Made by a program: the position numbers and the translations under genes. A DNA stretch of 64,000 nucleotides from Marsupella aquatica (taxonomy: Eukaryota; Plantae; Marchantiophyta): positions 9,053,875 through 9,117,874 of the forward strand of contig OZ316891.1 of NCBI GenBank assembly GCA_973895155.1. Direction: 5' to 3'. Position 1 is the first letter of the stretch; each line of letters starts with the position of its first letter. Shown in pieces: positions 1,151 through 64,000 of the stretch. The notes under the pieces are model-generated. The model had not been told where the DNA came from. It did not search any database and was given only the letters and a program-made list of their open reading frames with translations.

Positions 1151-1159
1151 ACAAATATT

Positions 1160-7100: not shown

Positions 7101-7298
7101 TGTGAGTACAAAAGTAGTCAAGGGGACTACCTCTCTAGAAGTGGAGAGTTGAAACTACTTATGTATGGAGTGATTAGTCATTGTAGGCACATTTCAGAAG
7201 TTTTGTCAATCCTTTGTGACCCTGGTATGATATGGAGCAGGTATTAGGTAGTCTTTTGGGGAGAAAAGCCGCTTAACCTCCTTGACAAGTGTTTGACA
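4151..7298. mobile_element. Solo LTR, 3148 bp
   Basis: TGT...ACA termini. 5-bp TSD TTATC at 4146-4150 and 7299-7303. Splits the copia motif KDIRDN/xYHIHTS. No terminal direct repeats and no convincing ORF. Confidence 0.85.
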
Positions 7299-14913: not shown

Positions 14914-15338
14914 CCATGCATCCCGAAATCAATTTCTCAATCACCAATCCCGTCACCCGTGGCAATGTCAATTCCCTGGCCCGAAACAGCCCCCGTAGCC
15001 CGATCACTTAAATTCTCTCAATTTCCCGTCACTACTCCGTGCGGCCGCCACTAATGCCTGGAAGAATGACGCCAGCAAGCCCCACTAATCCACCATGAAA
15101 GAGAGAGCTTCAAAAATAATTAGAATCTGGAGAGAGCTTCCGGCAAGAGAGAGAAGAACCCCGTTTTTGCTTTCGGCAATGAGAGGGTCGTGCAAAAGGA
15201 AGAGGGAAAGAAAAAGGAAGGAAAAAAAAATAGAACCGAAAAAACTCCTGGCGCCTTCGCCATGCGCCCCGGCCCATTTCTCGGGCCTTACCCTTGCGTC
15301 CTCCTGCGCGCGGCCCTATGCAGGGCGCGCGGCCATTC

Positions 15339-15570
15339 CTCCCGGCTCGCGGGAGGCCCTTCAACTCCCCCCCGCTCGCGTGATCCTCCCAGCTCGAGGG
15401 AGGCCCTTTAACTCCCCCCCGCTCGCGTGATCCTCCCAGCTCGCGGGAGGCCCTTTAACTCCCCCCCGCTCGCGTGATCCTCCCAGCTCGCGGGAGGCCC
15501 TTTAACTCCCCCCCGCTCGCGTGATCCTCCCAGCTCGCGGGAGGCCCTTTAACTCCCCCCCCCCCGCTCG
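15339..15570. repeat. GC-rich tandem repeat, ~47-bp unit, ~5 copies
   Basis: Unit CTCCCAGCTCGCGGGAGGCCCTTTAACTCCCCCCCGCTCGCGTGATC starting near 15339, 15386, 15433, 15480 and 15527. Confidence 0.95.
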
Positions 15571-16589
15571 CTTGCGCTCCTTCAGCTCGCGGAGCCTCAT
15601 TAATTGCCCGGGCACGCAGCCCTATGGGCTCGCGAGGCAGCCCCTCTTTCTCTCGGACGGCCACTAATGGGACTCGCCCTCCTGAGGAGGGATTTATTTA
15701 AAAAAAAACCCCCCCCTCTCCTGACTTTGCAATGGGGGTCTCAACAATAGCTCTTGAAGCAAAACGGTAAGTCCTATGGGGCTGGTCCTGGCTAGTTTCA
15801 AGGTCCCAAAATATTTGCCCACTTAGGTCGCCGCAAATCTTAGAACTATTATGAGAGAAAGAATATAAAGTCACCTGGGGCATCATCAACCTATAATGAC
15901 GGAATTAACTAAAAATTAAAAAATGGCTTATTTACATTGACTATTAACAAGGTATCGGCCTTTGCAACCAGTTATGTGTGACTTCCCGTGACGGGGTACC
16001 CGTCACACTTCTCCTTCAGTCTCATTCTTCAATCTCGTCTTCGGCTTCGCGTATCAATTCTCCATCAATTTCCACAACGGTTCCTGCCTCCTCACTCAAT
16101 CTGCGATTGACTGTTTTTCTTCCATGCTGTCTCGATCGTCTTATTCCAGTTTTGTTGTTGTCCTATTGGGAATTCCACTATTGTCCCTTATGGATTGAGA
16201 CAGTGGCTGCCTTTCTTAGCCTATCTCGCCTTCTCGTATCTCCTTGTGAAGATTGATTCTGTCCTTGAGTGAATTCTTCCCAAAAATTTACTCAAGATCC
16301 TAATTTTGGTGCTTTCTCAATGTTTCGTCAGGATTTCAGATTCGATACGCCATAGCCTCTTGCTCCAAGCTGGTAGAAGTGCTGATAACGTGTTATGTAT
16401 AAACTTCAACCGCATCCCGAACTTCTCCCTGGCAAATGAGGGTACAAAGTAGGTGCCTAACTATGGTTAGGTTAGGTTAGGATTTAACTAGGGTATCTTA
16501 ACAAAAATGTAATTTTATAATATGAATTTAAAGATATAAATAAATAAATAATATAAAAACTTTTAAAAGTAATCAAAATACAAAGAATA

Positions 16590-25272: not shown

Positions 25273-26154
25273 TTAATCATCGAGGCGTGTTTCCTCACCC
25301 GTGCTTCCATGCTTCCCATGCTTCATTTTCGCCAGTTCGACCTGCGTTTGCATAAAAAGTTGCATTCTTTGCAGCTCGAGGTCTTTCGTAAATTCCATCC
25401 GTTGTTTCTCGAGCTCCATCAGTTGGTGCTGTTTAGCGCTTTCAATTCTCTCGTATACTTCGCCGAATTTTATAATAGCCCTAGCTAAGTCTTTGAACGG
25501 ACCTTCCTGTAATTTACGCTTCACGATAGGCTTTCCTTCCGTCCCAGGGGTGGTGGCATGCGGACAACTGTCGGTCATATCCGGGCTCTCCTTGGATTTT
25601 GTGTTCGTGGACGCATTATTGAAAGTCTTCGGCTCACCGTTTACGTCCTCTACTCTATCCCTCTTGCGTTTCTGAGTTTTCGCAGACTTCTTGTGTTTTC
25701 TTGAGGTGCCAATCAACTCATCTAGCTTCTCAAAGAAAACCCACTTAGTGCCCGCGCCGCTGGTCGCCACCTTGCTCTTTTCCAACTTGTACTTCTTCTT
25801 CAATGTGTCCAACCTGTTCTTGCATTGCACATCAGTTTTGAGCACCTTACCGTCCTCCCGACTATTAACAGCTTCCGCCACATCCTTCCAGTGCTTTTGT
25901 TTCAGATTGCCACGGTTAAGTTCGATGTAACGGTCGCCCCAGGCCTCGATGAGCGTAAAGGTGGCGGTCTCGCTCCAGCAGTCCTCCCGGACGTGCTTCT
26001 CGTTCCCATCGCCAATGAGCTTGGTCGACCTCGAGGTCGGAGTAGAATGGATCCCCGGAAGCGAGAGCGTCAGAGTGTTGTGATGTTGCGACACATCGGC
26101 CGAGCCGTGACCTCCGCCACCATGGTGCGCTGGAACACGAATCTCGGCTTCCAT
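25273..26154 (-). CDS. Trihelix transcription factor, SIP1/ASIL-like (Myb/SANT-like DNA-binding domain plus C-terminal coiled coil)
   Basis: REDCWSETATFTLIEAWGDRY...HWKDVA...KTDVQCKNRLDTLKKKYK...WVFFEKLD and LARAIIKFGEVYERIESAKQHQLMELEKQRMEF. A possible splice donor (G|GTGAGG) near 25298 means the true C-terminus may lie in a further small exon. Confidence 0.93.
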   Translation of the reverse strand: MEAEIRVPAHHGGGGHGSADVSQHHNTLTLSLPGIHSTPTSRSTKLIGDGNEKHVREDCWSETATFTLIEAWGDRYIELNRGNLKQKHWKDVAEAVNSREDGKVLKTDVQCKNRLDTLKKKYKLEKSKVATSGAGTKWVFFEKLDELIGTSRKHKKSAKTQKRKRDRVEDVNGEPKTFNNASTNTKSKESPDMTDSCPHATTPGTEGKPIVKRKLQEGPFKDLARAIIKFGEVYERIESAKQHQLMELEKQRMEFTKDLELQRMQLFMQTQVELAKMKHGKHGSTGEETRLDD

Positions 26155-32099: not shown

Positions 32100-32745
32100 A
32101 CTAAATAATTAATCTCCTTAGTACTTGATGAAATATGTCAATGATAGATTCATTGGAAAGCTAGAAAAATTTAGAAACTCATGAATCACCTTTTTAGTAC
32201 TTGATAATATCTCCCAATGTTACACTCCATGAAAAGCTAGAGAAATTTAAAACTCATTATCTTCTTAGTACTAGACAAAATCTTAGAATGTTAAGTTCAT
32301 TGGAAAGCTAGAGAAATTCAAAAACTCATAACCTCCTAGGTACTTGCCAAAATCTATCAATGTTAGGTTCATTGAAAAACTAGAAAAACTAGAAACTCAT
32401 GATCTCTTTAGAACTTGACAAAAACTCTCAATGTCACACATTAGAAAGCTAGAGAGATTCGTGATCTACTTAGTACTTGACAAAATCTAACATGAAATTT
32501 GTCAATGTCAAAGTCAATGTAACTGAGAAGCTAGAAGAATTCATGAACTTACAATCTTTGTAGGTCTTGACAAAATCTTTGGATGTCACACTCATTGGAA
32601 ACTCATTTGGTACTTGATTAATCTGCCATTGTGAGATTTATTGGAATCCTAGAAAAAATTGGTAAACTCATGATCTACTTGGTACTTGACTAAATCTACC
32701 AATGTGATACTCATTAAAAACCAAGAGAAATTCAAAAAATTATGA
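32100..32745. repeat. Degenerate AT-rich minisatellite, ~60-bp unit, ~10 copies
   Basis: Recurring TAGTACTTGACAAAATC...AATG...TCATTGGAAAGCTAGA.AAATT...AAACTCAT at ~60-bp spacing. Confidence 0.85.
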
Positions 32746-33164
32746 TATCCTTTCTTGCTCATCTCTCAGTTAATCTGTGGACCCCCATGTTCATCCAAGG
32801 AATGTTCAGCAAGGCGATAACCAATGCTTTTGATTCTCCAAGTGGTTTGGTGTGTGCTCGGACTACAAAAGAGAACACTCGAAAGATAGAGGAGATCAAT
32901 CTTTTTGAGATGATCTCTCTGGTTCATGAAACGAAAGGTTGAATGTGGAGGAATTGAGTTTTTTTATGGTTTTCGCTTACACATTGGAGAAATCGTGTTT
33001 CTACCATTCTTGATTGATAATTTGTGAATTAGTTTGTGGACCCCACCTATTAATAGACACTATCAGAAGGTGATACATATCAGACATGCTCAAGAGTGGA
33101 GAAAGAAAACTCAGTGCATAAGAGAATAACATAACAGGTATTTATCGTGTTCACGAGCACAAAC

Positions 33165-43739: not shown

Positions 43740-45400
43740 TGTTAGACTCTACCCGACTTTACCCGTTGACCGGACTAGTCGGTCACCCGACACAACTATA
43801 TGTACACACCATTCAAGACTCTATACACGGTTATTGGCATTTACATTCCTACACGTTATCAGCACGAAGCTCTTCACCAGCAAATTTTTTTGAGGTGAAG
43901 GCCAGGATTGAATTGAATGTTGAAGAATTGAATCGAACGTGGATAGCTCTCACATAGAATCGGGCGAGGAATGATAAGGACCGAAGGGCTGAAATATCAA
44001 ATCAAAATTACACGATAATTGTAGGCAGATTTCAAAGGAGAGAAGAAAACTCAAAGAAAAGGAAATCAAAAGGCCATACGAAGCAGCAAAGGATTCGGAC
44101 TTATTCAAAGCAGAATGGCAACAATAAGTCAATTCATGGATTGAAAGAAAGAGCGACTAGAAAGCAGAAGAAACTACATAAGAAGATCAAAGAGATTGAT
44201 TCGAGGGTACAATTAAAGAAGAAAACACCTCGAGGCGAAATGGAATCGCACAGATTGATCCTATAGTGAAGCCGAAGAGAGAAACGAAAAGAAAATTGAA
44301 CATAGGAAGCGAAGGAAAATGAAAGCATACAAAAATGAGAACATTCAGCAATTGATCAGGAGAAGAGGAAATTGAACCCCCTATTACACAGCGCGATCGA
44401 CAGCAGAAATGAGTGGAATCAAAAAGAGGGAAAACGATCAAGTCAGAGGGAAGAAGACATTGTGAAACGAGAAGAAAGAGCAAGTAGAAATCTAAATTTG
44501 AAGTCAAAAACTGTTGATGCTGTCACAACTTACTTTTGAGAATGATTGAGATGAGAATTCATGCCTGAGCACAGCACTGTTGACGAGAAGAGCAGGATGT
44601 GGATTGGGGGGGATCCAATTCGACACGAAGCGGAGGTGAAGTCGTGAGGCGCGCGCATAGCACCTCTCCAAGAAGAAAAACCAAAAAAATGCAACAAAAC
44701 AGCGAAAACGCGGCTAAGTCCAAAACCCTCTTTAACTGCACAATCTGTCAAAGCAATTTCCGCACACAAAGAAAACTATGCAATTAACCATCTAAGTGCA
44801 AATAACCACAAAACCTCCATAATTGCACACCGTAACAAAGAAAACTTAACTTTACAAAGCTGCATGTGCACTTAACCAGGGCACGAGTAACTAATCACCC
44901 ATAATTGCACAAACTGCAAAACTCCATTACTGCACAATTCAACAAAGGAAATAGCAAATACAAAGGAAACTTTGCAATTAACCAAATAACAAGGAAAACC
45001 TAAATCCTAAGTGCAAACCCTAAAATTGAATTCCAGATTTGCATGCTCTCTGCACCCAGTCCCACTTTGCATGTCGCATAAATGTGCTTTGTCGATATTT
45101 ACTATACTTACTAGAACATAAGCCCCAATCACCATTAAAAGGAACCTAACCACCACCCCGATGGCCAACCTGGAGAAATTGACTTTCCCAGCTTTAGAAT
45201 CGATGGTAACAATTACCTCGAGTGGTCCATAAACCTAAAGGAGAACCTGACCTCCTTAACTCTACTCCCCGCTATAGGGATCGCTCAACCCATACTAGTT
45301 GGCGAACCCCAACCAGACCCGTTAACCAAAGCCAATGAATCCAAGGCCCTAGTATTTCTTAGACACCATATCCATAGATTCTTGCAAAGACAATACATGC
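43740..45400 (+). mobile_element. Bianca element C, 3'-truncated (LTR, PBS, leader, start of gag); same family as B
   Basis: LTR at 43740-43853 resembles the reverse complement of the B LTR. PBS CGTTATCAGCACGA at 43854-43867. Gag ATG at 45161 (MANLEKLTFPALE), truncated at ~45400. Confidence 0.9.
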
Positions 45401-45699
45401 GTCAACATGATATCATATCTATGTAAATGCTTTGATACCATATCAACATGATATCAACTCAATATAACATCATGTAAGCAATGATTGTATTAGCATTGTG
45501 TTGAACATAAATATAATCAAGTGTACAAAACAAACACTAAGGTTTGTGTATGTAAAGAAGTGAGGTCCTGAAATGACACATCTAAGAGACACTGTATATG
45601 AGGTCTACACACCCTTTGCATAACCAATTAATGAGGTGTATGGTCATGGATCATGACCAAGTAGTGCTATCTCATTAGATTGTCATCATTGGCGCATAT

Positions 45700-48600
45700 A
45701 TATATATCCCTTTAAACGTGAAGGCCAAGGTCCTAACTATGGTAGGTTAACCTATGGTTAGGTAAACTAGCATGTATATATCTTAACACTTCCCCTTGAT
45801 TGTATTATGGGAATAATGCAAGCGATTATATGCTAGTTTAAGTTCTCCAACAAAATCTCTAAAATTTTACTTTGTTCCTAAGAAGGTGTTGCCTCATTAA
45901 AACCCTCTCATACTCCTGCAAAGGAAAGAGTACAACCACCTTTTATATATATGAATGTTAGGATATTGACTATCAATGGGTAGTTGCTACGATGGATCTC
46001 TTATTTTAGATAGTCTCCTTAAGCCTATTCGGCGCTGCCTATGTGTTTGATCGAGTCTCTTTGAATGAATCATTTTGACATTTGCTCAACACATGCATAA
46101 TTGTCTTCAAACAACACAATGGGTTGGGTTAAGTTGGTAAGCCACATTGTGTGCTAATGTGATCAATTATTCTTCTCAATCATATGCATTCTCTACTAGC
46201 TTCATACAAGGCAATGATCTCAACATGGTTTAGTACTTTTCCATGAAATAATCGTACCATATAAAAATATATAACCAGTTTGTGACTTAGTGTTATCTGG
46301 ATCTAAGAAATATTCAGCGTCTGCATTATTGGTTAAAGTATAGTTAGTGTTATTAGAGAAATATAATCTCATATCAATAGACTTGTCTTTAAGATAATTA
46401 TATAGTAATATTCTTTTAATTTTGTTCCAATGGCATATGGTAGGTTATGCGCTATGTCTAGCCAATAAATTCATGGCAAATGATATATCAGGTCTTGTTT
46501 GGTTTGCTAGAAATATCAAAGCTCCTATTGCTCATAAATAAGGTTTCTCAGGACCCATTAATAATAGCTCATTTTTGGTTTGTTTCCTGACTATCTCTAT
46601 CTAGAGATCTTATTTCCATGGGAGAAGTAAGTGGATGAGCTTTATACATATTAAATTATTTAAGGATTTTATTTGTATAAGTACTTTGGTGTAAAAGCAT
46701 TCCTCATAGGCTAATGATGCACCAAATGGATGTAGTGACAACATATTTATATGGATTATTTGATACCGTATTTATATGAAGGCACTCCCAAAACTAATAA
46801 GCTGAAATATCTTTCATATTCAGGGGGAGCAATCATTAATAAAGAACCTCATAACAAATCTCCTTCTACCTCATATACCACTAATAAACCCTTAGGAGTA
46901 ACGAAGGGGAAAGGACCTATAGTCCTTAAAATGCATAAGAGTGGGCGTTTTGTCCATCTAGGAAAATGGCCTATTGTCCCACCCGTGCAACACTCCATGC
47001 TTTTGAATAAGGATGGATACGTTGTCCAGATCGATCAATCAATGTATGGACTAAAACAAAGTGGTAGAATATGGTACCAAAGGTTTAAAGAAGAGATGTT
47101 AACTATGGGTTTCACTAATGAGGATACATCGTCATGTTTATTCATCAAAAGAAATGATAATGAATTTCTAATTATAGCAATATATGTTGATGACATAAAC
47201 TTATTTGGACACATGAGGATGATTAACAAAACTATTGAAATGCTAAAGAAAATGTTTGAAATGAAGGATTTAGACCAAACCCATTATTGTTTAGGTTTAC
47301 AATTTGAACATTTAAATGTTTTCCCTTCCTGGAGTGGTAAAGGGTTGAGATGTAGATGTGGTTGGGTTTTCTTTTGTTTTATTCTCCCCTTGAATATGAT
47401 ATGTTTGTCTCTTTATTAATTCTGGTGGTGCTTTCATGCATATATAGTAGTATCCAACAATTCGTATAAATATGTATTTACTATATCCATCTGATGCATC
47501 ATTAACCTATGTCCTAGGGAAAAGCCAACTAGGTATCTATAGGTTATAGCATTCATAACTGGTGCTTATGTTAAATTAAAATCACGCTTGAACTAGGTAT
47601 CTGTGTATATCCTTAAATTGCAACAAGGCGTGCTTTATATCTCGCAACTTGGCCTTGAGCGTTTCATTTTTTCACAAAAGTCCACTTATAATCAGTTAAG
47701 TGACTGGGTGTTTGTTGGTGCAGGGACAATAGGTCCAAACACTTGGCGTTTAATCAGTGAATCAAAATCTGAATTAATTGTCACGGTCTTTTCCCATTTT
47801 GACCAATCTAGGCATTCTTGTGCTTTGGTAATGGTTTTCTTGTTATGTTTGTTATATTTTGGGAAATGTAAAATGCAAAGTTATCATCCATGGGAATATT
47901 GTTTCTATTCCATAGAGTCCTAGTATTCATATATTGAATTGATAGATCTTCATTTTATGGGATTTCCATGGGAATTAGTGTAGGTATCACCTCAAGTATT
48001 ATAGGTGATGGTGTTGTGGTAGTTCTTCTTTGTCTTGGTTGGGTATCTTTAGATCCCAAAGGACGTCCATGTTTTGCTCTTGGTTGTTGCTCAGGGGCAT
48101 TTGCAATGTCAGGAATGTGATAATGTTAACTGCACAATATCGGTAAATGTATCTGGCATTTGCTCCATGGTCTTTGACAATTACAATATCCTATAAACTT
48201 CTTCTTCATCTTGACATGTCCGTGGATCATTCCAAAAAATGGATTGTGTTTGCCATCGCAACTCTAAGTCACGAGTTTGTTCAAATTGTGGCTTCTCGTC
48301 AAATAATTTAGGGAAAATGTTCTCATAGAAATGACATTCAGCAAATCTTGCTTGAAAAACATTAGTAGTGGGTGGTTCTAGGTACATGATTATAGACGGT
48401 GACTCAAAACCAATATAAATACCTTTCTATCTTTGAGGTCCCATTTTTGTATGGTTAGGTCCCATTACAAGGACTAGATAGTACTTGACAACCAAATATC
48501 CTGACATGAGATAAGTCAGGGTCTACACCAAAAGCTAAGTACGTGGTGTGCAGTTAGGTCATTTTATGCTGATGGACGATATTCAAGTAAAGATGCCGCA

Positions 48601-49567
48601 TGTAAAACAGCATGACCCCAAACAGTTGTAGGTAACTGTGTCTGCATGAGCATGGGTCTTGCTATCATTTGGATTTTCTTAAATAACGGATTCAACAATA
48701 CCGTTTTGAAAATGGACGTGAGGTACAGGGTATTGGGTATCTATCCCTATAGCCATGCAAAAATCTTCAAATGTTTTTGAAGTGAATTTGCCTGCGTTAT
48801 CAACCCTAATCGTCTTGATAGGGTTTTCAAGGAATTGGGCTTTTAGCTTCAGAATGTGTGCTAAAAGTCTAGGAAAGACCATTTTTCGTGTGGAAAGTAA
48901 TGAAACTTGTGACCATTTTGAAGATGCATCAATTATGACGGCCCACTCAATGGTTCAATAGGACCACATACATATGCATGCACGCATTCTAAAAATCTAG
49001 GCATTTTATGGATAGTCTTAGAAACAGAAGGTCTAAGTATTAATTTTCCTTGAGAGCATGTCATGCATTTTTGAATTTTATGTGTCGGGCGTGCTTTCAT
49101 TGGTATGTTGTGGGTTACTTTCTTCATTTTCTGAAACATGCTTATACTAAGATGTCCTAACCTAGTATGCCAAAGGTCATATAGTGACATATCATGTGTG
49201 ATAGAATGAAAAGCATTCAACTGGATAACATAAAAACCCAACGGATAAGCAAAAACAGTTTCCTTTATTTGCATGCCCTCATAAGTATTCTATAAAATAT
49301 GAATAATTTCTTGATTCTTGTCGGTACTAGTATGAATATGGTATCCATTGTCTCTAATGTCCTTGAAACTAATTAAGTTCCTCGTGGCGTTAGGCACGTA
49401 GATAGCGGACTTAATGTGAATAGTGGTGTCTTGGGGTAAAATGATGGTGACAAGTCCATGGCCTTCTTCTATCTGATTACTCCCCATGATAGTGATCATC
49501 TTCCTATGGGATGGAGTAATATGGTTGAAATAATCTATACATTTAGTATAGTGTGGGACGTACCACT
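45700..49567 (-). mobile_element. Bianca element D, decayed pol and 3' LTR; same family as A
   Basis: LTR end TCTTAACA at 45788 with adjacent PPT, resembling the A LTR. Remnants of RNase H, RT, integrase (RVDNAGKF) and protease. The RT segment at ~46705-47315 is inverted. Confidence 0.88.
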
Positions 49568-52500
49568 TGTAGTAGTTGATAAAAGACTAAAAACACAATT
49601 TTATCTCTATCGACTCGATATTCGGTCCCTTTAAGAACAAGATGGGGTTGATTTGATAAATAAAACACATGAGAGTTTTTAGATGCTCTCTAACATATAG
49701 TAATCATGATTGATTACTTTACTCAGGTATTTTGAAGATCACTCCACAACGGTGAGAAGTTTTTAATGGTAATTCAACATTATGTAACCATCAAATAATA
49801 AAATAAAACAATTAACAAAACACAAGGAAAAATGTCTTAAAGTATGATAAGGGAGTCTGGAATTTACCAAGGTTACTCCTTATTCATAAGTTAAAATAAA
49901 TTCTCCTATTGTGATGTTGGCTTTGACATTGTCAATGTCTGCCACAATGTCATACGGTTGGGATTTCTCCAACTTCAATTTCCCTTCCTCGATTGAAGGC
50001 ACCACAGGAGTAATTGACTTCTTGATTTCAGGTTTCACTTGTAATTCACAAGCCAAAATCTCTTTGACTTCTGCAGAGATGTCCGGTAAGAAGTATTTGA
50101 GATCATTACGATCATATGCTCCATCGTTCTTGTGGTCCACCTCTTCTCTTTCCACTGTTACAGGCTGCTTGACCTTCGTCAATTCCTTCAGGGGTTTAGC
50201 CAACTTTTTCTCTTTAGATCGAGTCACTGCGAACATGTTCAGTACTCTGTCTCTCTCCCAAACTCTTTTGTTGGGTTGGCCAAGTTCCTCTTCCTTGACT
50301 AAGTGAGGTACCTCAATGTCAAACACCAGGCCCTATGATCCACCATTATTCATATCCGGAATTTTGGTGGCTGCAGTTTTAATTTTTGGATTCAGATCCG
50401 GATCTGCACTTGGAAATAGTTTTCTGCGTTCTTTCTCCTTTTTCTTCATTATGGCGACTTGGGATGTAGACTCCTTCCTTGGGTTCCGATAAGTTGGAGA
50501 GGTGACTTCCACAATTCGGACATGGTCCACCTCTCCTTCTGGCAGCCACATTTCCTCCTCATAGCACACAAGCCAAACATTAGATTCTGGTTTTTGTGTG
50601 TCCTTGACTGGCTCTTGTACATATCTTACCAGCATCTTTGGCTTGGGTGGTGCGGGGCATTCCATAGGTAAGTGACCTTCCTTACCAAAGTTTCCACACA
50701 AAGGATTCATCCCTTCAGGTCTCTTTGGCCATGGACATTGCGGTGAAAAATGGGTCTGATCCCCACAATTTCAACATACGCCTCTTGGCAAAGTTCCTCG
50801 TGGTGGGTATCCTCCTGGTGGTGCCATAGGTGGCTTATAGACAGGTCTATTAGGTCCTCCTTGAGGTCTTATTGGTGGTCTAGGGAAGTATTGTACAGGG
50901 CCTTGAGGTTGAACTTGATACACTGAATGTTCATACCTCTGGAACTCTGAATCACACTCCATCTCACCTTCATAGTCTTCACCTGCAATGTAATTCACTT
51001 GCTTTGGGCTAGGGCATTCATTAGGATAATGGCCCATCTTCTTACAAATAGCACACCACACATTGTACCTCTGTTGTTGTATGGGTCTCCGTGGTGGGTT
51101 ATTCATCGCAAGGTTTACAGCCAATCCCTTCATCTATTTGGCAAGACCTTCCATGATGTCTACAATTTTGCCTTCACTTTTTGCAGTTTTTGCAGGTTTA
51201 ACAGTGGACACTTTCTTGGATTTCACCTCCTCCCCATCAGTGCTGTCCGTATCGTCTCCACTATCATCGCTCTCACTGGATGTATTGTCTTCAGAAGAGG
51301 AAGAATCAGCTTATTTGTTTTCTTTTTCTTAGACTTCTTCTTCTTTTTCCTTTCTTCTTCTTCAATCTCTTTTGCCAGCTGGGACCGTTGGGAGAGATTG
51401 GCATCTATATAAGATTGAGCTACATCATAAGCCTCAGTCAATGTTGTAGGATTGGACATTCTGACAAACTTATTCAATCCATGGTACAAGCCTTGAATAA
51501 ACCATTCCTTGATCAAGTAAGCCGATGGAGCTGGTGTAACTTTCTTGATTAGTCTGTTAATCCTTTGAAGGTAACCACTCAAGGAATCTGTCTTCTTCAT
51601 CATTATGGAATTGAGTCGTGTAAACGCCCAAAGCAGTGGCTCCATCTTCTTGGAATGCCTTCAGGAATTCTGGTTTAACCACAGCCCAATCAGCTGTATT
51701 TTCCAGGTTAGAGTAACATGTTCTGGCTTCACCTCTCATGAGACCTCCAAAAATTGTAGCTTTTATGTCTAGTGCATCATCTTCGTTGGACATTGCCACA
51801 GCCTCAAAATTCTCCATCCAGGCTTCAAAGTTATACTTCTTCCCTCTGAAGTAATCACAACAAATCCTTGACCGGCTCGCCATTGCAAGTCCTCCTGGTG
51901 GTGGTGGTGCTTGTGACGTTGCTAGAGTTTGTGCCGAAGTTATGCTCGGTCGCGTCGAACTCCTTCTTCTTCCCCTGACAAAAGGCACAACAAGTTTAGG
52001 CCCAAATCTCAAATTCAAATATGCAGGTCTAGTCCTGGTTGGTCGGTCTGGTGTTCCTCCACTTGTCCACGCTCCTAGAACTGAAGATACTGCACCAACA
52101 CGGGGGTTCTGCGGACTTCTGTAATCACTTTGTTGCAAAGAGGAAGAGGGAAGATCTTGACTTGGAACTTCTTCGGTTTCCTCCGATTCACCTGAAGGTA
52201 CTCAACTCATAACTACTCATCTTGGCCTACGCGTCTCGACAATCATCAACAATTTAAATCACCAATTTGAGATATGTGGTGAAGAGATCAACACCAACTG
52301 TGTGTGATATTGCTCAAATCAACCAGGATTCGGTTCCGTAAGGAATAAGGAAAGCGTTTTACTCCGTTTTTGTGGTATTTGAAATCTAAAAGTGATTTCT
52401 TTACTAGTTCTTCTCTCAGAATCCTAAAACGATTCTTCCATAAACTCCTTATTCAACAAATTCATAAGGTCTTACTTCTTATCAATAGGTAATCGGATTT

Positions 52501-53929
52501 TCATGTATCCTGGACTTTCATATACTCAAAAGAGATTGGCTTTACATCCAATGACTTATTACAATTCTCTTTTCCCTAGGTATCAAAGTTTCACTCTTAC
52601 AAATCCATGAGTTTAAGATAAGTTTGATATTTTCAATGCACAATTTTGTATATTTCCTTTTGATTTAGTCTTCCCTCCTAAGCCCAAGATTGGCATGAGA
52701 GAAAGACCCAAAATGGTCAAAAATTAAGTTTGCAAGGAAAAGACAATGAATCATGGTCTTGGGAGTCCACTTGTAAGGCTCCCTCAAAAGGTTGAGATGC
52801 CAAAAGGCTTAAAAACCTACAAACTTTTTCTCATCTAAACTTAAGGTCCTAAAAGGTAAGGTAAGACTAAGACTCTATAAATCTAATTCCTAAAGGTACA
52901 CTAAACTATGTCCCTCTATATCCTACTCTATCTAACTCATGGAAAGGCTCAAGAGGTGAGAAAGAGATGCAAAACAGTTTAAGCAACACATGCCAAGATA
53001 TCCCGGAGAATCGGTTTAGGATATTTTGAAGTTTTTGCTTTTCATGATTTAAGAAATTCTTCATGTAGCCCTTGCAAAAGGCTTTCCAACGAGACCAAAA
53101 GCTCCTCCAACCAACATGGGGCCGATCCACAATCATCCGGCAAAGGTGGTGCAGAATCCTCAAACCGAAATCCCACTAAAAGCGATTTTCTCCGGACTTA
53201 GCTAAAAGCGATTTACTTTGGATTTAGCAGGAAGCAATTCTTCAGTTTGAAATCCCAACTTCTTCACTTCTTTCCAAAACTTCCTTTTGAGGCTCAAAAT
53301 AGGTTAAGGGGTGATTTATTGACTTGGAGAAGCTTTAAGTAAGGCCGAAAAGTTTTAAAATGTACCAATTTCACTCCATAGCTCCTTTTTACCATTCCAC
53401 AAGATACCAGTTCCAGAGTTATTCCTTATGTTCGGATTTCATTCCAAATCCAGATATCACCCCAATCCGGATTTCACTTACATTCTCACTCCTCTATACT
53501 TCCTTGTTGGAGTGCTTCTTTGAATCTCGCATTCCCTTTGCTAGTCAAAATTCTCTTCATTTTTGCAATTAATTGTTTTTGTTCTTTGAAAGGAAAGTGA
53601 TCTTCTTCAAAATCCATAGTCTCCAATGCATGCACGTACTCCAATTGGAAGGCTCTAGAAGCATTAAAGATTGTATATAGTTTGCTTCTTGAGTTTAATG
53701 AATGTTTTTCGTGCTCAGGTTCTTCTGTGGTACCAACGTAACCATTCAAATATGCTCCTTCCATTGTGCTGATTGCACTGCTTCCGTCCACTGTAGACTT
53801 GAATTGATTTGAGACTGCTCGCTCTCAGGGACTTCCTCTCAGGAGGTGTCTCTCTTGAAATGGTCTCCTTTGATTACTTCAATCTCTGTAAAACTCAAAT
53901 CTATCAAAGTACCTTCACTTTTCAGGTCA

Positions 53930-53947
53930 CTCCCCGACAGTGGCGCC
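53930..53947 (-). other. Primer-binding site, tRNA-Asp type
   Basis: TGGCGCCACTGTCGGGGA matches the recalled Athila-type PBS TGGCGCCGTTGCCGGGGA at 15/18 positions and is preceded by a T-run and a CA LTR end. Confidence 0.8.
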
Positions 53948-53955
53948 AAAAAGCG

Positions 53956-56046
53956 TGTGGTAAAGTGGTTAGATTGTTAAATAACACTTTAACTTCTAAA
54001 GACCTGAATTTTTTCCTTTAAGAATTAATGAAAAGCGAATTGATACTGAAAAGAACAAATAGGATGTTAATTGGGCATGACCTTGCCAAGGAGTTCTCTC
54101 TCCATAGGATTGATGATAATCAATGAAGAAAAGCTAACAAAGAAACAAAATGACATGAAAAAGACTAGTGAGAATATCCTTTCAATTGGTCTGTTGCACA
54201 AGGTAATGTAATTTGACGACCTCCAGAAGATCAACAGGACCTTGGCTTTTTAAGAATCAGAATACATTAGAGCTTAAACCATAGCCAAATTTCAGAATGG
54301 ATAACCACATTAAATAACAATTGCAATGGAGAACAATAGCTATGAATCCAAGAATCCTTTCAGGTCAACAAAGTAGGACGATACTGAAATTCTTGATTTA
54401 ATAACTTCTCAACACTACAATCACTAAACTGCCGAGTAGTTTCTCAATTTGATTTTGATTGATGGTCATGGAAATTGAACATTCAATTGTACATACCGCA
54501 ACAATGGTACTTGAACCTTCCCAACCAGTTCCTCTAATTGCTTTGTCTTTCCGGTTGCACTCTCCACAAAAATCCGGACATGCTCCAACTTTGCTGATGC
54601 CATCCACTTCAACTTGATGTCACTCCTGGAAGACTTCCTCTGCTTTCCAGTCTCCGGAGAGCAGGTTCCAGATCTTCAATAGGATCCGGTTCCGGACTCT
54701 GAACTAATCTCTTCCGTGTCCTAGGGGGTCGGACTTCAACAATTGGTTCTTCTTCTGACTCAGTCCCCTTAGATGGCTGTCGATCCGGATCTCCAAGTTG
54801 AGCCAACATGGCTTGGTTCTTGTATTCCTCTGCCTCTTCATCTGTCAGAACCCGGTGCATGGAGTACAGGTTTGCTAGGTAGCACGAAAGCGAGGTGGGA
54901 GTCTTCAAGTGAAGATTCTGGACTTCTTTAGCAATGACTTCCTCCAACACCTTCGCCCAAGAAATCTTCTTCTCACCCACATAGGAAGCAGCAATGGTGT
55001 TCCCAATCCGGATTGTAACACGGTGAGGTTTGGCAGGGGACAGAATGGGTAACAAGAAGGACAAGACATCAAAGAACTCCTCATCCAAGCATTGAGACAT
55101 CTTCCAGCCATCCTTTGGATCTACTTCGCCATCAAAATAGTTGTCAGCGATGTTTTCTTTCGAGGTCAGAAAGCTCTCTCCTTTCAATGGCACATCCAGT
55201 AATGATGAAATGACAGCCGCAGTCCACTTTTTTGGATTTCCTCTGATAGAATCCGGAAAATCCGAAGCAAGGGTGGCACAATTCCGGACCTCCTTCACGA
55301 ACACTGCACTCTGATATCCCCATGGTAACTCCATCAACTTTGCGCAGCCCATGGCCTCAAGGTTCTTCTGTAAATGGCCCTTCCTTTCCGGATCCGTAGG
55401 AATCTCCGGACGCAGCAGCTTCTCGTTAGCAATGATTGTCCACTCCTTAGTCATCCGCTTTGGTAGCGTCCGTATTCTGGATTTGTCCAGGGCAAAATCC
55501 AGATCCTTTCTCTTCACCATGATGAACGAGGGAAAGAAAAAAAATGAATGTCGAACCCTTTCACAAAACTCCAGAAATCTCAAATGATCTGGAATTTGGA
55601 ATCAAAGTGTCACTGCCCCACTCAATCGAATGATCACCCACTTCCCCTGTAACCAACTTCCTTACAACTAATGCCTCAAATTGGCAGCCTCGTCCGGCTC
55701 TATTCTCTCTTGTGACTTCTCGCAAAAGATTTCCGTAGCAATTCGATGGTGTGAGGAATGCTCGGTCTGGCTTGGTCATAAGAACTCGGTCGCCAACTTC
55801 CGGTCTCCGGTCGGATGTCAGACTTATGGTTTTAATATTCATTCTCCCATGCCCTCTCTCATGGTTCAATAGTGCCGCTACTTTAAAGTTCCAAAAGGGT
55901 GCTATCCAGAGATTTTCGGATTTCATACTGCAATTTAGTTTTAATGGTCCTTTTTGGTCTTAGTATACTTCGTTAACCACTAAAAGATGAAAATTTTCAA
56001 AAAAATTTGACTTTTTAATTTCCTTAGTTATAACCATGGCATCACA
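53956..56046 (-). repeat. 5' LTR (~2.1 kb) of the gypsy element, containing an ORF
   Basis: Ends in CA a few bases before the PBS. The other boundary (TGTGATGCC at 56046) is inferred from the motif only; there is no partner LTR to confirm it. Confidence 0.6.
54609..55520 (-). CDS. ~303-aa gypsy accessory-type protein located upstream of the PBS
   Basis: Open from ATG 55520 (MVKRKDL...). Motifs LEAMGCAKLMELPW, IRGNPKKWT, DGWKMSQC, ISWAKVL and an acidic/basic tail. Confidence 0.7.
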   Translation of the reverse strand: MVKRKDLDFALDKSRIRTLPKRMTKEWTIIANEKLLRPEIPTDPERKGHLQKNLEAMGCAKLMELPWGYQSAVFVKEVRNCATLASDFPDSIRGNPKKWTAAVISSLLDVPLKGESFLTSKENIADNYFDGEVDPKDGWKMSQCLDEEFFDVLSFLLPILSPAKPHRVTIRIGNTIAASYVGEKKISWAKVLEEVIAKEVQNLHLKTPTSLSCYLANLYSMHRVLTDEEAEEYKNQAMLAQLGDPDRQPSKGTESEEEPIVEVRPPRTRKRLVQSPEPDPIEDLEPALRRLESRGSLPGVTSS

Positions 56047-56889
56047 CCCTCACCAAGTTTCAATACAGGAAGTGTTGCATTTGAATGATTGGCAGTATCA
56101 TTGTATCCTTCAGCTAATTCCTTTGGAGCTAGGGCAGACACGAAAGATCCTCTCGCACATTCCTTCGGAGGCATGTTTCCCTAAATGTTGCAAAGTGATG
56201 GCAGCGATCAAGATTACAAGAGCATACACAAATTGAAGTGGAGCAAAACTAAACTGCAAGCAAACACTGGCAGCCTGAGTGTTGTAGAAATTCTGTGAGG
56301 GTGGGGGTCGATGTTGTACAAAGTTGTTGCTGTACTGCAAGAGGAGTTTTTGAGAATGTCACTATCTCTCCTTCATGGTCCGTAGCTGGTTCACGTTTTG
56401 TGAGAGCATTCTATGTACTGGACACTGGAGAAATGAAAGAATGGACGCATCCCCATTTATTACTTAAAAGAGCTCATGAGAACACACATGCTTCTAATTA
56501 ATACATACCAGAGGACTCCTCTATACAAAACATTTCCGCTAGGAGTAAAAGATGAAACCCTTTCTCAAAAAGAGAACAAATTTTCTTTTACAGACTCCAA
56601 AACAATATAGCACTATTGCAAAACCCAAATTGCACTATTGCAAAATTCCATACTACGCAAGGTCTTCCTACACATGTGGTCTATTGGGATCAAAGCCTCC
56701 TGTAAAACTTGTATCAACACCCACAAAATGTAGGTCCTTTGGAATTATTGTAGGAGGTGTATGCACTGGTCCAATTGGCTCCTAGCCAGGCACCTCAACT
56801 GGAATTGACGCCTTCACAAGCACTAGTACACTTCAAGAAGCTCTGGCTGGAGTATGTATGGCCATCTGAATATCTGCTAACTCTTTTTC

Positions 56890-57720
56890 TTATGCAACCT
56901 TGAATTTCTCAAGCTCCCGAGCTCTCCATTGCTTGAAAGAATCTCTGCAATCATCATCCACTTGTGCTGCCCTCATGGTGAACAAATTGTGAATGCTTTG
57001 ATCCTGGAGTAGCTTCAAAAGTTTTGAATTAGTGATTGCCATATCCCTTTCGGCGTAAGCTGCAATCCGAAAAGCAGGCTCCTCACTCTTGAGCTTCTTG
57101 GCAGCCTTGTTGCCCATGGGTTGTCCATTGTTGCTAAATTCCCCAACAATGCTATTATCACAATCATTCGGGTTTATGATTTCTGTAGGCAAATAGGGGG
57201 TGGGGGGTACATTCTCCTTGTCTGTAGGCGATGCCTTCCCCTTATCTGGTGCGGAGTCATTTCCCTTTGCCTTCTTGCCCTTTCGTTTAATCTGCCATGT
57301 CTTCTATAGAATGGGAGAAACTTGGGCAATCTTTCAACAAGTACCAGCAGTCCATGAAAGCAAAATCCTTCCCCTTCGGATGTTGTGCCTGATAATGCTC
57401 TCTTGCCTTCTGCAAAGTATCTTCTTGATTGGAACCAGAAAGCTTGAGATCTTCTACATTGGCATACGAACCTGAAAACTTTGCAATGTCATGCTTCAAA
57501 TCTCCCCATTTGCTCTCCAGTGATCTCGCGTCTCTCTTTTGGGTAGCTCTCGGCCTATGTTGATTGTAGTGGCCAGTGACACGATCCCAAAAAGCTTGAT
57601 TTTTTTGCCCTGCACCCACAATAGGATCCTGTCCTATGTTCACCCACGACATACACAATTGTTTCAACTCGTCAGACTAATTTTTTTGCCAGCTAGCACT
57701 GTTTGCTGCCATCTTTGCTA
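56890..57720 (-). pseudogene. PIF/Harbinger-type Myb/SANT-like (NAM-associated) ORF remnant
   Basis: LCMSWVNIGQDPIVGAGQKNQAFWDRV...RSLESKW...KFSGSY...SGSNQED...FAFMDCWYLLKDCP and PMGNKAAKK, broken by stops. No transposase seen. Confidence 0.8.
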
Positions 57721-58740
57721 GGGACCACTCAAGCTCCAGAACGTGCAGAGCTCGTGCGATGCAACAATGCAGAATCTCGTGCAATGGGACGGTGCAGAAG
57801 CGAGGGAAACTTTTGTTGCAGGATTGGAGTCACTAGGTCCTTGCAACATAGGACCACGGTGGGAACAACGACGATTGAAACCGTTGGATTGAGGCAGGAC
57901 TAGGGAATCTGGGCTGTTGCAACCGGATGCCGTGAAAGAATGCAGCTTCTCCCAGCCCGCTTGTTGAGCGTAGGAGTGCCGTGCCAAGAGGTGGAAAAGG
58001 CGGCTGATATGATTAGGGTACGGGCGCCGGTGGGGGAGGATATTGGTCGCATCCCCGCCAATTGTTGCCTGACCACTCAATATAGCGGACAGGTGGGAAT
58101 GCTCTAATGGAGGAGACATGATCCCAAACGCCAAAAACCCAATCCAGGGGGAAAACAAAGGAAAATATTCGGAACTAAGTACATACGGTTTGTGTCCGGA
58201 TTTGGGAAAGGCCATAACATCAACAATAATGTCCTCTTCAGCGTTTTTCCCCGTTTGTTCAATGTTCATCATTCGGGCGAGAAGGTGTGAAGATCATTCG
58301 GGCGTGTCTGGCTCTACAGAAAGATCATGAGGTTTTAGCACATCAATGTACACTTCAGGGTTTTTCCCCTTCCTTCATGTCTTTCATCATTCGGGCGAAA
58401 ATGGAGACAAGACGGGCAGTAGCTGCTGTTGCAGGAAATCATGACATCGCCTCCCTTTAATGCCACTCATGCCTTTCGGATTGAATTGAATGAAGAGAAA
58501 TGATTTGCACGAAGGTTGAGCAGCTGATTGAGTGTGGAGTGGAATTCAATGTTTGGCGCTAGTGATGGTGGGGAGAGTACGTAAGCTGTCTTGACCATCA
58601 ATTGATTTAATGAACAGCTGCAGAGAACCCATTGAGAGGCTGCATCGCTTCAGCTCTCTCCCAACTTCAACTGAGTCTTGAAGTCCCGGTGATAGAGTCG
58701 ACGACGTGTGAGAGAGAGGTAGGCCCAAGCATTCCTTACA

Positions 58741-61700
58741 ATGTCAGCTGGAGTTGAGGGACCGGAAGAAAGCGGAGGAACGTGTAAGCCAGTGTACAAA
58801 ATTCGTGGACATACTGGGTCCATTCTTTGCTGTGTCACCTCCCGCCATTCTCCAGATGAGATTGTCACTTCCAGTGAGGTTAGTTGTGAGGTAGAGCGTG
58901 GTTGCTCTGGATACACACTCTGTGCTTTATCATGTTCACTCCGGAATTGCACTTCTCTAGCTGATTATCGCTCATCCTTTTACAATGAAATGTCGATAAA
59001 TTGTGACCAACGGATATCGCAGTCTTTTCATGGTGTTACATATTTCGAACGTTCAATACTTTTTGGCAGCATTAGCTTCCTTCGTCTTCAACTTAATTCG
59101 CTATACCCAATTGTACTGTGCTATAGAATAAAGTGATCAGTACCAGAATCGTCCTCAGTCCCGCTACAAGAATTCAAACCATCTATCGCTTTATTTTCTG
59201 TTTCGTGGTTCTCAGGATGGCTCGGTTAGGGTATTTGACTTACGCAGCCAAAGTTGCTCGACTACGCACCAGTGTTTCGGTGGAGAATCAGTTGCATCCG
59301 TCTCTTTAAATCCTGGTGAGGCCGTTTGCCTCAGAATCGTTTCTCAAGCAAATTCAAAATTTGGTTGGGAAGACGAGGACCTGATCTCATTCTCGCCAGT
59401 TGTTCTGTGTGACCTAACCTTATAGTGCTGTCTGCTAAAACATTGTCAGGTGACAAATTTAGAGGGGCTTGTAATCTTTGTCCGTGGTGGATATGCAGGA
59501 AATGCTATGGAGTTCTATGCTGCAGCTGGTTGTGTGGTTTACTGTGTCGATCGTCGTGTGGTATTCGCACTTCCCTTGCAAACAACGTTCGGTTTCTTGT
59601 ATGCATATCTCAGGATTGAAGTAGCTGGAATTTGGAGTGTTTAAGTCCCATACAGTGTCCAAATCCGTGAATTATGGACTTCATATCCTGATGAATAATC
59701 GTCTCAAATTGTGGAGGGATCGTCTGGCAGGGAACTACAGAGATACGACTTCAACCTTGATGAAATTAACCAGGTTCAAAGTCTCTTCTATATCTTCTCA
59801 CTATGATTGTCTTCTGGAAAATTCTTTCGAAGGACAAATTTATTACTTCTTTCATGTTTCCCATGAATCGCTTTTTGACTGACACACAATATGTGCTCTG
59901 CTAGCATAGGTTGTAGTGAATCAGAAGGGATCTTATGTTGCTGCAGCAGACGACAGTGGCGAGATAAAGGTTGATCAAACGCTATCTAGCAACTGCTTGA
60001 TCTGAAGGCCAGTTGTTTAATAAATGTTATTTGATAGCCAGGCCGATTGAATAGCTGCTGTAAAACGGAAGAGGCGCTTAAATCAAAGATGTGTTCGATC
60101 GCAGCCCAGTGTGTGTTTCTATTTTTCTACTGTATTTTCTGCTGAGTTGCTTTCTGTTGGAGTGTGCTAGTACAGTTGAGAGTTTCAAGCTACTCACAAG
60201 CCGTGCTTGCTTGTCTGTGTGCTTCCCATATCCCTGGCATGGCCTACTCCCTATTCAGGTTATCGATGTTCACAAGTACAGACTCTACCGAACACTTCGT
60301 GGAGGCCATACAAATGTATCCAGTTAAAGCCTTCATCTAACTAAGCAGTCAGATTTAAAGATTTACCCTGTTATTTGGAGTGCAAACACGCAATACTGAT
60401 GGTCACATTAATTAGCAGTGTTTTTAGACTCTTTTCATGGGATTTGAGGTTCTTGAAAGTTTTAACAGTCATGAGTAATGTGCTTTCATAACCATGAGCT
60501 GGTCATACCCTGTTTCTGTCTTGCGATGATTTCCTTGACTGTTCCTACAGATATGCAGTGCAGTGCAGTTTCATCCTCAAAAACCATGGGAAGGTAGAAC
60601 CTCTTTGTGCTACTGGCCAAGTATTATCACGCTGCAAAGGATAACTTCAAGCAGATATGAAGTATTCTATACGTTGTTGTAGTTTCTCTGAGGAACTCCC
60701 GACATGTTGTGATAATGAAGTAGGACTCTGCCATGGTAGACAGACATTGTCCAAGATTTTCGAGTTTTGCTGCAAGAATAGTGGTCGGACCAAGAATGAC
60801 TGTATATCTAAGCATGGACCGTTGTTCATTGAACCTGATTTTCTAATTGAGAGTGTGAAAGTTGCTTGAATTGCAGTCATATCAGGGGGATTGGATTCCA
60901 AGATCATCAAGTGGGACTTTTCAAGAGGCAAACATTTGAGATCAGTAGACCTTGGTGAGCATGGACGGGGCTGCTTTTCACCTTGTTTAGTCTTTGATCA
61001 CTTACTGTCTTCGTCCTGACCTGAACCCTTCCCTTGCCCCTTGTTTGGGACCTTGAAATCAGTCTTATTCATAGTTTTATTTTAGTCCCCCTCAACCTCG
61101 TGGCAGAGCTACGAGCACTGCATCTTTGCCTGTGGAAAGTACAAGGGTGTATCTTTCACGCCTTCAAAATGTTGCTGACAGTAAGTTTGTCTTCTGGATT
61201 GTAACAACGTCTTACGGGGCTTATTCTCTTGAATTCGCCTTTCGCAGTTGCAGGCAACGCAAACGTAGGTCAACTATGCAATCCTCCTTTTGTTCATGCC
61301 TTAGCCATTCCTGAAGGTAGTGGTTCTGCGGATAGTGGAAGAGTGGTTGCAGTTGCCCGAGGAGATGGTGCTATAGAAGTCTACGATCCAGGCTTTGAGA
61401 GTGTCAAGCCTGTCGGGAGCAAGGAAACGAAAAATAAGAAAGGCAATCATCAGACCAAGTCAGGTCAGGGTGAGATTGGTGAACCAGCTTTAAGGGTCAA
61501 TGGACTCAGGTGCCACTTGGATGGTCAGCATGGGGGGCACTCAACAGCTGTATCTACTGTGTAAGTTCTCATAGCACCCTCATTATAGCGGGTCCGTTAT
61601 CTTATTCCAAGTCTCTTTGGGATGAAGACCGAGTGGTCTGAAGTCATTTATAAGAATGCTCTTAAAATTGCGTTTTATGGTCTACTACAGTTGACAGGGA

Positions 61701-62700
61701 CAGCCCTGATTCTGAGATCTGGCGGAAAGAGAAATGAGGAATTCACAGTTATGGGAGGGATTGTATTAAGAAGTAAATATTGGCCTAGATATTTGAACTG
61801 ACACTATATTAGAAAAGATGTCTTGCGCCCTTATCCAAGCAATTACACAATTAAGTGCAAGCTGTCAGGTTCTTCGTGAGAGCTAAGTTCGTTCATCTCT
61901 GCATTTCTTTTCTTGTTGTGTAGGGCCTTTGCAGCTTTTGGTGGAAACGAGCACTTTTTGGTGTCTGGGGGCAATGATAAGTTTATAAAACTTTGGAACT
62001 GGAGATCTTCACTTGTGGTTTCTCAGTCAGATAATGGATCTGAGTTAGTACTCAACATTCAACATGGCAAGAAGGTGTGTTTAATCCATCTCTTTCTGTT
62101 AAATATAGCCTGATGGTTCCATGGCCTGATTAGGTCCTGTGGACTTCATATACTGGTAGTGTGCGTCATTCATTTATTCCGTTTTTGAGCTTTCTAATGA
62201 AAACCAGAGAGCTATGCATTTCTATTGAGAAGAATGAACTGGTCTTCAAGACCAATCATACTATCGTTTATTCATATTCTTCTTAACGCAGGAGCTTCTT
62301 CCTGACGACCTTTTCATGAATTTCCTCCTATTCAAACTAAACAAAATCTGCTGGTGATGCACGAGCTTCCATTCCGGCCTGTGTATCTGTGCTTTCATGT
62401 TCTTCCCTTTAGAGTACTCTCCCTTTCCACTATGCAAGATACTTGTCCACGGAAAAAAAAACTATTCATACAATCTCTCTTCCTGTATATCTAAGGTTTG
62501 TCTAATCCCTAGCCTAGAGCGTCTTCCCTCTTTCGCAGATATGAGTCTTTGAAAAGAAGCCGTAGTGAGATACATAATAAGCCTGGCTCGTGTCGTGTTG
62601 GTTGAGACAGATCAACTGGTTGAGTACCATGGATAGGAACAGTGGGAACCTAGCAGTTGCTGATACATCCAAAGTTTTGAGTGTTTATCACATCTTGTGA
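58741..62700 (+). CDS. WDR53: WD40-repeat protein, WDR53-like, 11 exons
   Basis: Exons 58741-58878, 59216-59315, 59499-59560, ~59717-59773, 59910-59969, 60259-60315, 60551-60593, 60877-60954, 61248-61560, 61924-62074 and 62611-62700 splice in frame with GT-AG boundaries. Motifs IRGHTG, SEDGSVRVFD, DEINQ, AAADDSGEIK, GHTNICSAVQFHP..PWE.ISGGLD, LCNPPFVH, SGGND..IKLW, HGKKINWL. Confidence 0.88.
60316..60550 (+). other. Probable U12-type (minor spliceosome) GT-AG intron
   Basis: Donor GTATCCAG. Branch site TTCCTTGAC at 60531-60539, 11 nt before the intron end. No polypyrimidine tract. Confidence 0.7.
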
Positions 62701-64000
62701 GCTCTATTTGAGTTATTGCACAAGATTATGACTTGACATCATGTGCTATTCGTCCAGGTATGTCCAATCACGTGACCTGTCTCTTACTTTATACTTTTCA
62801 CTTTACCAAGCAGTCTCTTGAGTCCAAATTAAAACGAGCTTTCTTGCCAATGGCTGTGGCAATTTTCAAGAAGTTTGGATTGCTGTTCGTATATCATGGG
62901 TTGCAGATATTGATGCCATGTGCATCTTCGCTTGCAAAAAGCTAGTGGGCCTCAATTTAAGACACTGCTAATCCATAGAGGCTACCTTTCCTCTGAGGCT
63001 AATTTCAAATCCGCAAATCCAGCTCTCTTCCAGACAATATTGGGAGTGGTATCGGCATTCTGCAAGATTGTTATTCTGACCAAAGTCTGTTATGTCTTGA
63101 AGATGCACAGAATTTTTTTATCAGAAGAAATTGACTGAATGGTAGAGAACTTACTGTACAGATTGAAATGGTCGCAGTACATTAAAGCTTCCTCAGCAGA
63201 CAGCCTCTCTGAATCTCCTAGACCGCCAGAAGATGTACAGATTTGTGTCACTTCAATTCCATCGTAGTGAGATTCGTTCCACTGTTTACTATAACCTCCC
63301 TGGGTGATGGATGCCCACCTCGTTGAGAGGGTGAAATCAAAATGATTGTCCAGTGTTTTCGAAAGCTTTTCAGTGGATAAGTTTTGCTTTCGTGAAACTC
63401 GCAGGCTCACCATGTTTTATTCTATGATTGCTCGGGCACAAGAATATAAGTACTTTGATTTTTTATACTTTTTTATGAGTTACAACTTTGAACAGATTAT
63501 TTCTACATGTTATCACTTGACAAGCTTATAAATACCAAATTTAAAGAGAGCCAGTATTGTCTGTCCTCGTGCAACGAAACTTCTGACACTTCATCCGTGT
63601 TGATCAGGCTGGTGTATAACAGATCTAAGTTGAAGTGAATAGCGTAATCGTTTCAATAGTAGATGGGCCCCTTTCACAAACTTCCCAGAAGCACAGAAGT
63701 AAACCCGGAATAGAGTTGTATAACAGGTGAAAATGGGCACGCACAAGATCGAATAACTTTCCAAACTGTCAGCTTCAAACTAGTTCTATTGGCCCTCTGT
63801 TCTCTCTTGTCCCAAGTCTCATGCGCTGGGCTCTATGGGAGTTGGCAGTATATTTGCAATCCGCATTTCATCATATGTCTGCCTGACAAAGCCTAGTAAC
63901 GATTTCTCAGTGGGCCCATGTGATTTTCCTACCTTTCTCTATGCTTGTAATGTACAAGAGGCTGCTAGAACCCGACCAAACCATAGCTGTCTAAGGGTGT

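Follow-up and report, generated by a model that had tools for sequence, protein, structure and literature searches.

The sag gene of MMTV and the nef gene of HIV are ORFs that lie in U3 and are duplicated at each replication, and the Ogre ORF lies behind the primer binding site (PBS), not in the LTR. The extra ORFs of LTR retrotransposons have been described in the internal region (PMC7264820; PMC6317226), and what the accessory ORF of Athila does is presented as an unanswered question (bioRxiv 10.64898/2026.03.20.713144), as far as the available sections of these sources go.

Sequence-specific anti-silencing is established for the VANDAL DNA transposons of dicots, whose VANC proteins bind short motifs that are amassed in their own elements and differ by family. 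VANC21 is reported to make cognate copies lose methylation without these being transcribed (PMC5735166, available sections). VANC has been described as dicot-specific (PMC13547354, section 10). Published modelling assigns the VANC fold to the PMD proteins MAIN/MAIL1 and PMD-A as well, the latter being retrotransposon-encoded (Ogre) (bioRxiv 10.1101/2024.09.27.615353; PMC6317226, both in part). In the main texts covered, neither a plant LTR-resident accessory gene nor a VANC-like fold in Athila-type ORFs was found; the article on the structure of VANC21 (10.1266/ggs.25-00096) and Sasaki 2022 (PMC9016345) lay outside this scope, and either could contain the link in fold. Likewise, the available text of PMC11728184, PMC12844716, PMC13205880 and bioRxiv 10.64898/2026.09.17.752431 mentions no LTR-resident gene and no VANC-like Athila ORF.

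Here, we describe an accessory ORF that very probably lies within the LTR of an Athila-like Ty3/gypsy element. The likeness to MMTV sag and HIV nef is one of layout only, as the proteins and hosts are unrelated. The VANC proteins of the VANDAL elements (Mutator-like DNA transposons; DUF1985) are alike in predicted fold over 197 residues, with a globular domain and a coiled coil, and in having family-specific short motifs repeated within the element. In contrast to VANC, the protein is encoded by a Ty3/gypsy retrotransposon in a bryophyte-type genome and shares only 13% identity; the motifs are dispersed CG palindromes, many of them in coding DNA, and whereas binding and demethylation are known for VANC, here there is a candidate motif. 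As to the PMD proteins, none of the 94 members of the accessory family matches PF10536 among the matches listed, and the likeness in predicted fold is to VANC21. The VANC-like predicted model with a matching candidate motif is the more interesting point than the position of the ORF or a link to a 618-aa protein encoded nearby, and the two together make it testable what this kind of Athila ORF does.

Layout of the element and its accessory gene

The window, i.e. the whole 64-kb stretch of DNA analysed, contains the following features.

53956 to 56046, minus strand: 5′ LTR, Athila-like Ty3/gypsy, 2,091 bp, TGTGAT...ACCACA; longer in other copies
54609 to 55520, minus strand: accessory ORF, 303 aa, with a globular helical domain (~residues 25-243, predicted VANC21/PMD-like model) and an acidic/basic linker; shortened in this copy
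54400 to 54620, minus strand: out-of-frame, partly deleted remainder of the accessory gene (coiled-coil part); approximate limits, placed by eye from the frames, the match of homologue P0008 and loose ends
54573 to 55410, no strand: nine TCCGGA palindromes, out of 13 in the whole element, eight of them inside the ORF; candidate self-recognition motif
53931 to 53948, minus strand: PBS of the Athila (tRNA-Asp/Asn) type, after the published motif; near match to the PBS of the relative L001
51884 to 53930, minus strand: long 5′ leader, including a 92-aa ORF directly behind the PBS (53764-53486, minus strand)
49891 to 51883, minus strand: decayed gag (capsid, CCHC knuckles), ending ahead of the protease at a copia-type insertion
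11946 to 16007, minus strand: solo-LTR-like comparison unit of another family, 4,062 bp, TGTGAC...GTGACA, 5-bp target duplication AGAAG
13057 to 14913, minus strand: intact ORF within the comparison unit, 618 aa, with an N-terminal domain, a coiled coil and an acidic tail

Read along the minus strand, the unit opens with TGTGATGCC at 56046, and the ORF (55520-54609) and the end ...ACCACA at 53956 follow; after a 7-nt spacer comes the PBS TGGCGCCACTGTCGGGGA (53948-53931, minus strand), and downstream of it a leader of ~2 kb and the decayed gag. The order TGTGA, ORF, CA, PBS, leader and gag given in a preliminary description of this DNA was thus confirmed. Set by eye against the 13-letter tRNA-Asp/Asn PBS published for Athila (motif from bioRxiv 10.64898/2026.03.20.713144, seen in part), the PBS agrees in 10 letters, and one of the three differences (53937) is restored in other copies. 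The gag shows a weak match to Ty3_capsid (E=1.8e-4) and, at 51850-49895, 31-39% identity to the L001 gag in tblastn; it is cut by copia-type DNA at ~49891, where contigs have loose ends. Self-BLAST and a repeat search revealed no second LTR in the window, and tblastn with the L001 pol against the whole window gave nothing at E<=0.01. The LTR contains neither AATAAA nor TATAAA, with a single TATAA at 56032, and the RNA fold of the LTR end and PBS is nothing unusual (z -0.49).

The accessory gene is broken in this copy, and the 303-aa ORF is not the whole gene. Beyond its stop near 54610 family-like residues continue in another frame, P0008 matches across the stop, albeit weakly (E=0.15), and at least 255 extra letters found in other copies at 54514-54520 are missing here; full-length homologues mostly comprise 400-800 aa. 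The only named homologues stem from the leafy liverwort Calypogeia fissa (P0001-P0005, P0152; up to 51% identity), which makes a liverwort, probably a leafy one, the likely host. The ORF matches no Pfam family, including PF03078 (Athila ORF-1), PF20167 (Transposase_32) and DUF1985. Across the 94 family members, one matches PF20167 (E=0.005), none matches PF03078 among the 25 of 43 families listed, and DUF1985 is absent from the matches listed. In the language-model search of the ESM Atlas, the first match of the 303-aa protein is an unnamed cluster (279 aa, 72 members), and ATHILA and Transposase_32 clusters are among its neighbours.

The genomic context was looked up for 30 homologues, and P0036 was chosen for its metagenome contig of 10.9 kb; among 29 stretches, scanning with P0036 yielded one locus, L001. 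Scans with A3 (metagenome) and A5 (viral) confirmed none of 124 and none of 120 stretches, respectively, as related loci. L001 represents a complete element with a circular assembly (end overlap of 123 nt). Its pol comprises RT, one RNase H and integrase only, with no additional RNase H match; liverwort Tat (Tat Z) clades are likewise described without the extra archaeal RNase H (PMC10508981, available part). A PPT-like tract at ~3752-3770 is followed by an ORF at 4213-6450 homologous to the window ORF (E=1e-31), by a second tract at 6555-6573 and by an ORF-free LTR of 991 bp that starts with TGTGATG, with the PBS and gag behind it. This PBS has 12 of 13 letters of the Athila motif (bioRxiv 10.64898/2026.03.20.713144, in part). 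The two PPT-like tracts flanking the accessory ORF are near-identical, and a stop at 814-816 separates the protease and RT frames.

L001 therefore indicates that in this lineage the gene can occupy the usual Athila position. The earlier statement that the accessory family resides in LTRs is thus not a rule, as the gene is internal in the sole relative with context. Athila is matched by the window element in the PBS type, the few letters between LTR and PBS, the long leader and the long LTR, and by L001 in RT-RH-INT without an extra RNase H match and an ORF between pol and PPT. PBS, leader and L001 layout hence fit Athila, an assignment made from sequence features (bioRxiv 10.64898/2026.03.20.713144; PMC1142308; PMC6317226, each in part). 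Unlike the sense 3′ extra ORF of Athila, the window ORF appears to stand in the LTR, and its protein reaches neither PF03078 nor PF20167.

Predicted fold, TCCGGA motif and possible function

The predicted model of the accessory protein matched VANC21 (PDB 9lnk/9lnj) over the 197 residues mentioned above. A profile search of PDB sequences did not place VANC21 among the best 60 of 187 and gave coiled-coil noise only, and the viral structure library yielded no match at E<=0.001. Judged from the model, kinship of the protein with the VANC/PMD fold is reasonably probable.

The motif TCCGGA is in excess in the element: 13 copies are present in 6,156 bp, 2.8 being expected under an order-2 model, and two in the ~54 kb of remaining window, a count that leaves out the unit of the 618-aa protein with its five copies. 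Within the ORF there are eight, compared with 1.06 in synonymous shuffles (0/2000), and all six CCG codons precede GA (Fisher p=1e-5), despite the CpG-poor element (o/e 0.47). The motif was picked after the fact, giving a corrected p of ~0.02, and three of nine control chunks, one of them the 618-aa unit, hold an equally extreme hexamer. TCCGGA is thus a lead for a candidate binding site, not proof. L001 contains AGCGCT 14 times in five clusters. These AGCGCT-rich clusters (637-8030), with a period of 8 bp, are found in the LTR and leader, in the spacer between protease and RT, and both ahead of and within the accessory ORF, and may be a self-recognition motif as well; the codon tests are weak for L001 (65/2000) and for the 618-aa ORF (60/2000).

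The VANC21-like fold, if correctly predicted, suggests that the protein may help the element to escape host silencing. In the explanation that we favour, the decayed 5′ end of an Athila-like Ty3/gypsy element would encode an LTR-borne accessory protein that binds the element's own TCCGGA and counters silencing by the host. Taken as a whole, with an LTR-resident gene, a VANC21/PMD-like fold, TCCGGA binding and anti-silencing, we give this explanation an even chance; sequence-specific DNA binding and anti-silencing in trans by the accessory protein are put forward tentatively, somewhat below that.

Alternatively, the ORF may be an ordinary Athila-type 3′ accessory ORF that is LTR-borne and has no role in DNA binding or anti-silencing, its product being a coiled-coil structural or oligomeric helper or a passenger; the likeness to VANC would then be remote or generically helical and the motif a by-product. 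We consider this unlikely, though a serious competitor. A protein that binds the element's own motif in order to drive LTR transcription, or to tether or direct the integration complex, rather than to remove silencing marks, would draw on the same fold and motif evidence, with motifs clustering in the LTR, where the promoter is, and host PMD proteins acting at promoter motifs against Polycomb (bioRxiv 10.1101/2024.09.27.615353, in part). However, motifs are also found in coding DNA and gag, and the sole matched structure is that of an anti-silencer, which renders activation or tethering improbable.

Returning to the anti-silencing explanation, a wider and rather speculative version would hold that bryophyte Athila-like elements carry a sequence-specific anti-silencer of VANC/PMD fold co-evolving with a family-specific CG palindrome, that gene and motifs moved into the LTR in some families, and that the Athila ORF, VANC and MAIN/PMD form one superfamily as old as land plants. 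If true, solo LTRs with gene and motifs would be self-contained anti-silencing cassettes.

Position of the accessory ORF and its possible origin

To delimit the repeat, contigs of four public sequencing runs containing the repeat family were aligned, and two of these runs were then aligned on 53760-56250. In X1, five contigs run past the unit at 53956 into dissimilar sequence (agreement 0.51), the pattern expected of 3′ and solo LTR ends. At the other end, an X4 contig of depth 1209 joins 55836 to 56009 and has 38 letters on that side, so that the family match ends at 56046. The X1 depth beyond 56112 is 32-36, near the value of 19.7 for the contig of this locus itself. Between 54050 and 56046, a stretch that includes the ORF, the deepest X4 contigs have depths of 1774, 1796, 1436, ~1570, 1283 and 1209, compared with 534-694 for the PBS side and gag; contig depth is not copy number, drops where copies diverge and is high in some internal bins. 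Dips occur at 54180-54515 in X1 (65-130) and at 55524-55607 in X1 and X4. The unit thus has TG...CA ends followed by a PBS, and its copies meet unlike flanks at 53956; at 56046, unlike flanks are suggested by the match end of a deep contig and the fall in depth. No loose ends at 56046 appear among the 12 of 215 rows listed, and no PPT junction was seen in the run contigs.

In end-anchored alignments, the two ends of the window unit match the two ends of the L001 LTR (2/1000 and 0/1000 mononucleotide shuffles; five tests run), and the unanchored local versions are all non-significant (13-81/200). The anchored match supports 56046 as the true LTR start independently of depth, and indicates that the ORF came to stand between LTR-start and LTR-end DNA. 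Moreover, no purine tract followed by TG exists inside 53956-56046, and the two ends of the unit share no repeat (score reached by 17/300 shuffles). The ORF therefore very probably lies within the LTR; copy boundaries and depth, the homology of the termini to the L001 LTR and the absence of an internal PPT with TG or repeat all support the earlier proposal that an Athila-like element carries it in a long 5′ LTR. A short true LTR, with the ORF as the internal 3′ gene of a neighbouring tandem or truncated element, would agree with L001, which has exactly the order ORF, PPT, LTR and PBS, and with the lack of a second LTR in the window. This is very improbable, as PPT and TG are absent between ORF and PBS, the unit ends share no repeat, no pol lies upstream of 56046, the family match ends at the TG at 56046 with LTR-level depth across the ORF, and 56046 is similar to the LTR start that the PPT defines in L001.

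An ORF borne by the LTR outlasts solo-LTR formation and is overlooked by surveys of internal-region extra ORFs; if the position alone holds, a known type of element has gained a modestly novel arrangement. Versions of this LTR shortened by deletion were also observed (window 54762-55907): X1 and X3 contain copies without 55005-55659, a stretch that covers the start of the ORF, and 55180-55711 is missing from others.

The gene probably moved into the LTR from its usual place between pol and PPT, either via a duplicated PPT/LTR-start block or via insertion into U3. By the first route, a duplicated block upstream of the ORF would take over plus-strand priming; by the second, the ORF would be inserted into U3. 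Since reverse transcription copies the DNA behind the PPT, the ORF would then belong to U3, and both LTRs, as well as each solo LTR, would receive a copy. The duplicated PPT block of L001 (0/1000 shuffles) shows one possible route. The DNA behind its upstream PPT-like tract matches neither the window LTR start (84/1000) nor the LTR start of L001 itself (412/1000) clearly; in view of the former value, insertion into U3 is still conceivable and a simple PPT shift is not supported.

The 618-aa protein and the surrounding DNA

The window holds a second, unrelated ORF-bearing LTR-like unit at 16007-11946, which is plausibly a solo LTR of ~4 kb with an intact ORF. It is one of five TGT...ACA pairs with a 5-bp duplicate around the 618-aa ORF, namely the one with near-inverted ends, and we take these ends to recall chromovirus (Tekay) LTRs. 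A GC-rich array (47 bp x 4.8) with CGCGAG lies upstream of the ORF at 15337-15561.

The preliminary description had seen spaced motifs common to the 303-aa and 618-aa proteins and joined both in one family that would tie the solo unit to a parent architecture. The shared motifs proved no better than chance, and no sequence or profile test supports a common family. BLASTP gave a best E of 4, the 618-aa protein scored -1.4 bits against an HMM of 84 family sequences, in the acidic tail only (up to 4.8 in 1,000 shuffles), and its glocal PSSM score was reached by 41/150 and 36/300 shuffles. The profile-profile comparison that had been suggested, run with hhalign, revealed no significant similarity (probability 0.2%, E=0.31). 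At the DNA level, the two units share nothing (local score 29, shuffle maximum 31). Homologues of the 618-aa N-domain were absent from 5,530 and 1,314 candidates (two length classes), and the single-sequence model (pLDDT 38.8) was unusable, its fold search giving generic helical bundles only. In the ESM Atlas, the first match of the 618-aa protein has the same size and member count as that of the 303-aa protein, and ATHILA/Transposase_32 clusters follow, at 0.81-0.82, which counts as a lead only; shuffled proteins reach this level in one case out of three. A distant superfamily relationship between the two proteins is conceivable, though less likely than not.

Upstream of the LTR, moderately repeated DNA at 56100-58300 (minus strand) contains a broken Myb/SANT-like ORF (57652-57287) and probably represents a PIF/Harbinger-type element. 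Decayed copia-type elements, presumably Bianca-like by their gag start, lie at 17657-21691, 44692-49890 and 3749-8332, one of them nearly whole with a pol ORF of 1036 aa. Among the repeats there are also a host ORF of 293 aa at 25273-26154 (minus strand), trihelix-like on visual inspection, and, at 58700-63000 (plus strand), WD40 gene exons. Finally, a degenerate 71-bp tandem array is located within AT-rich DNA at 32103-32751.
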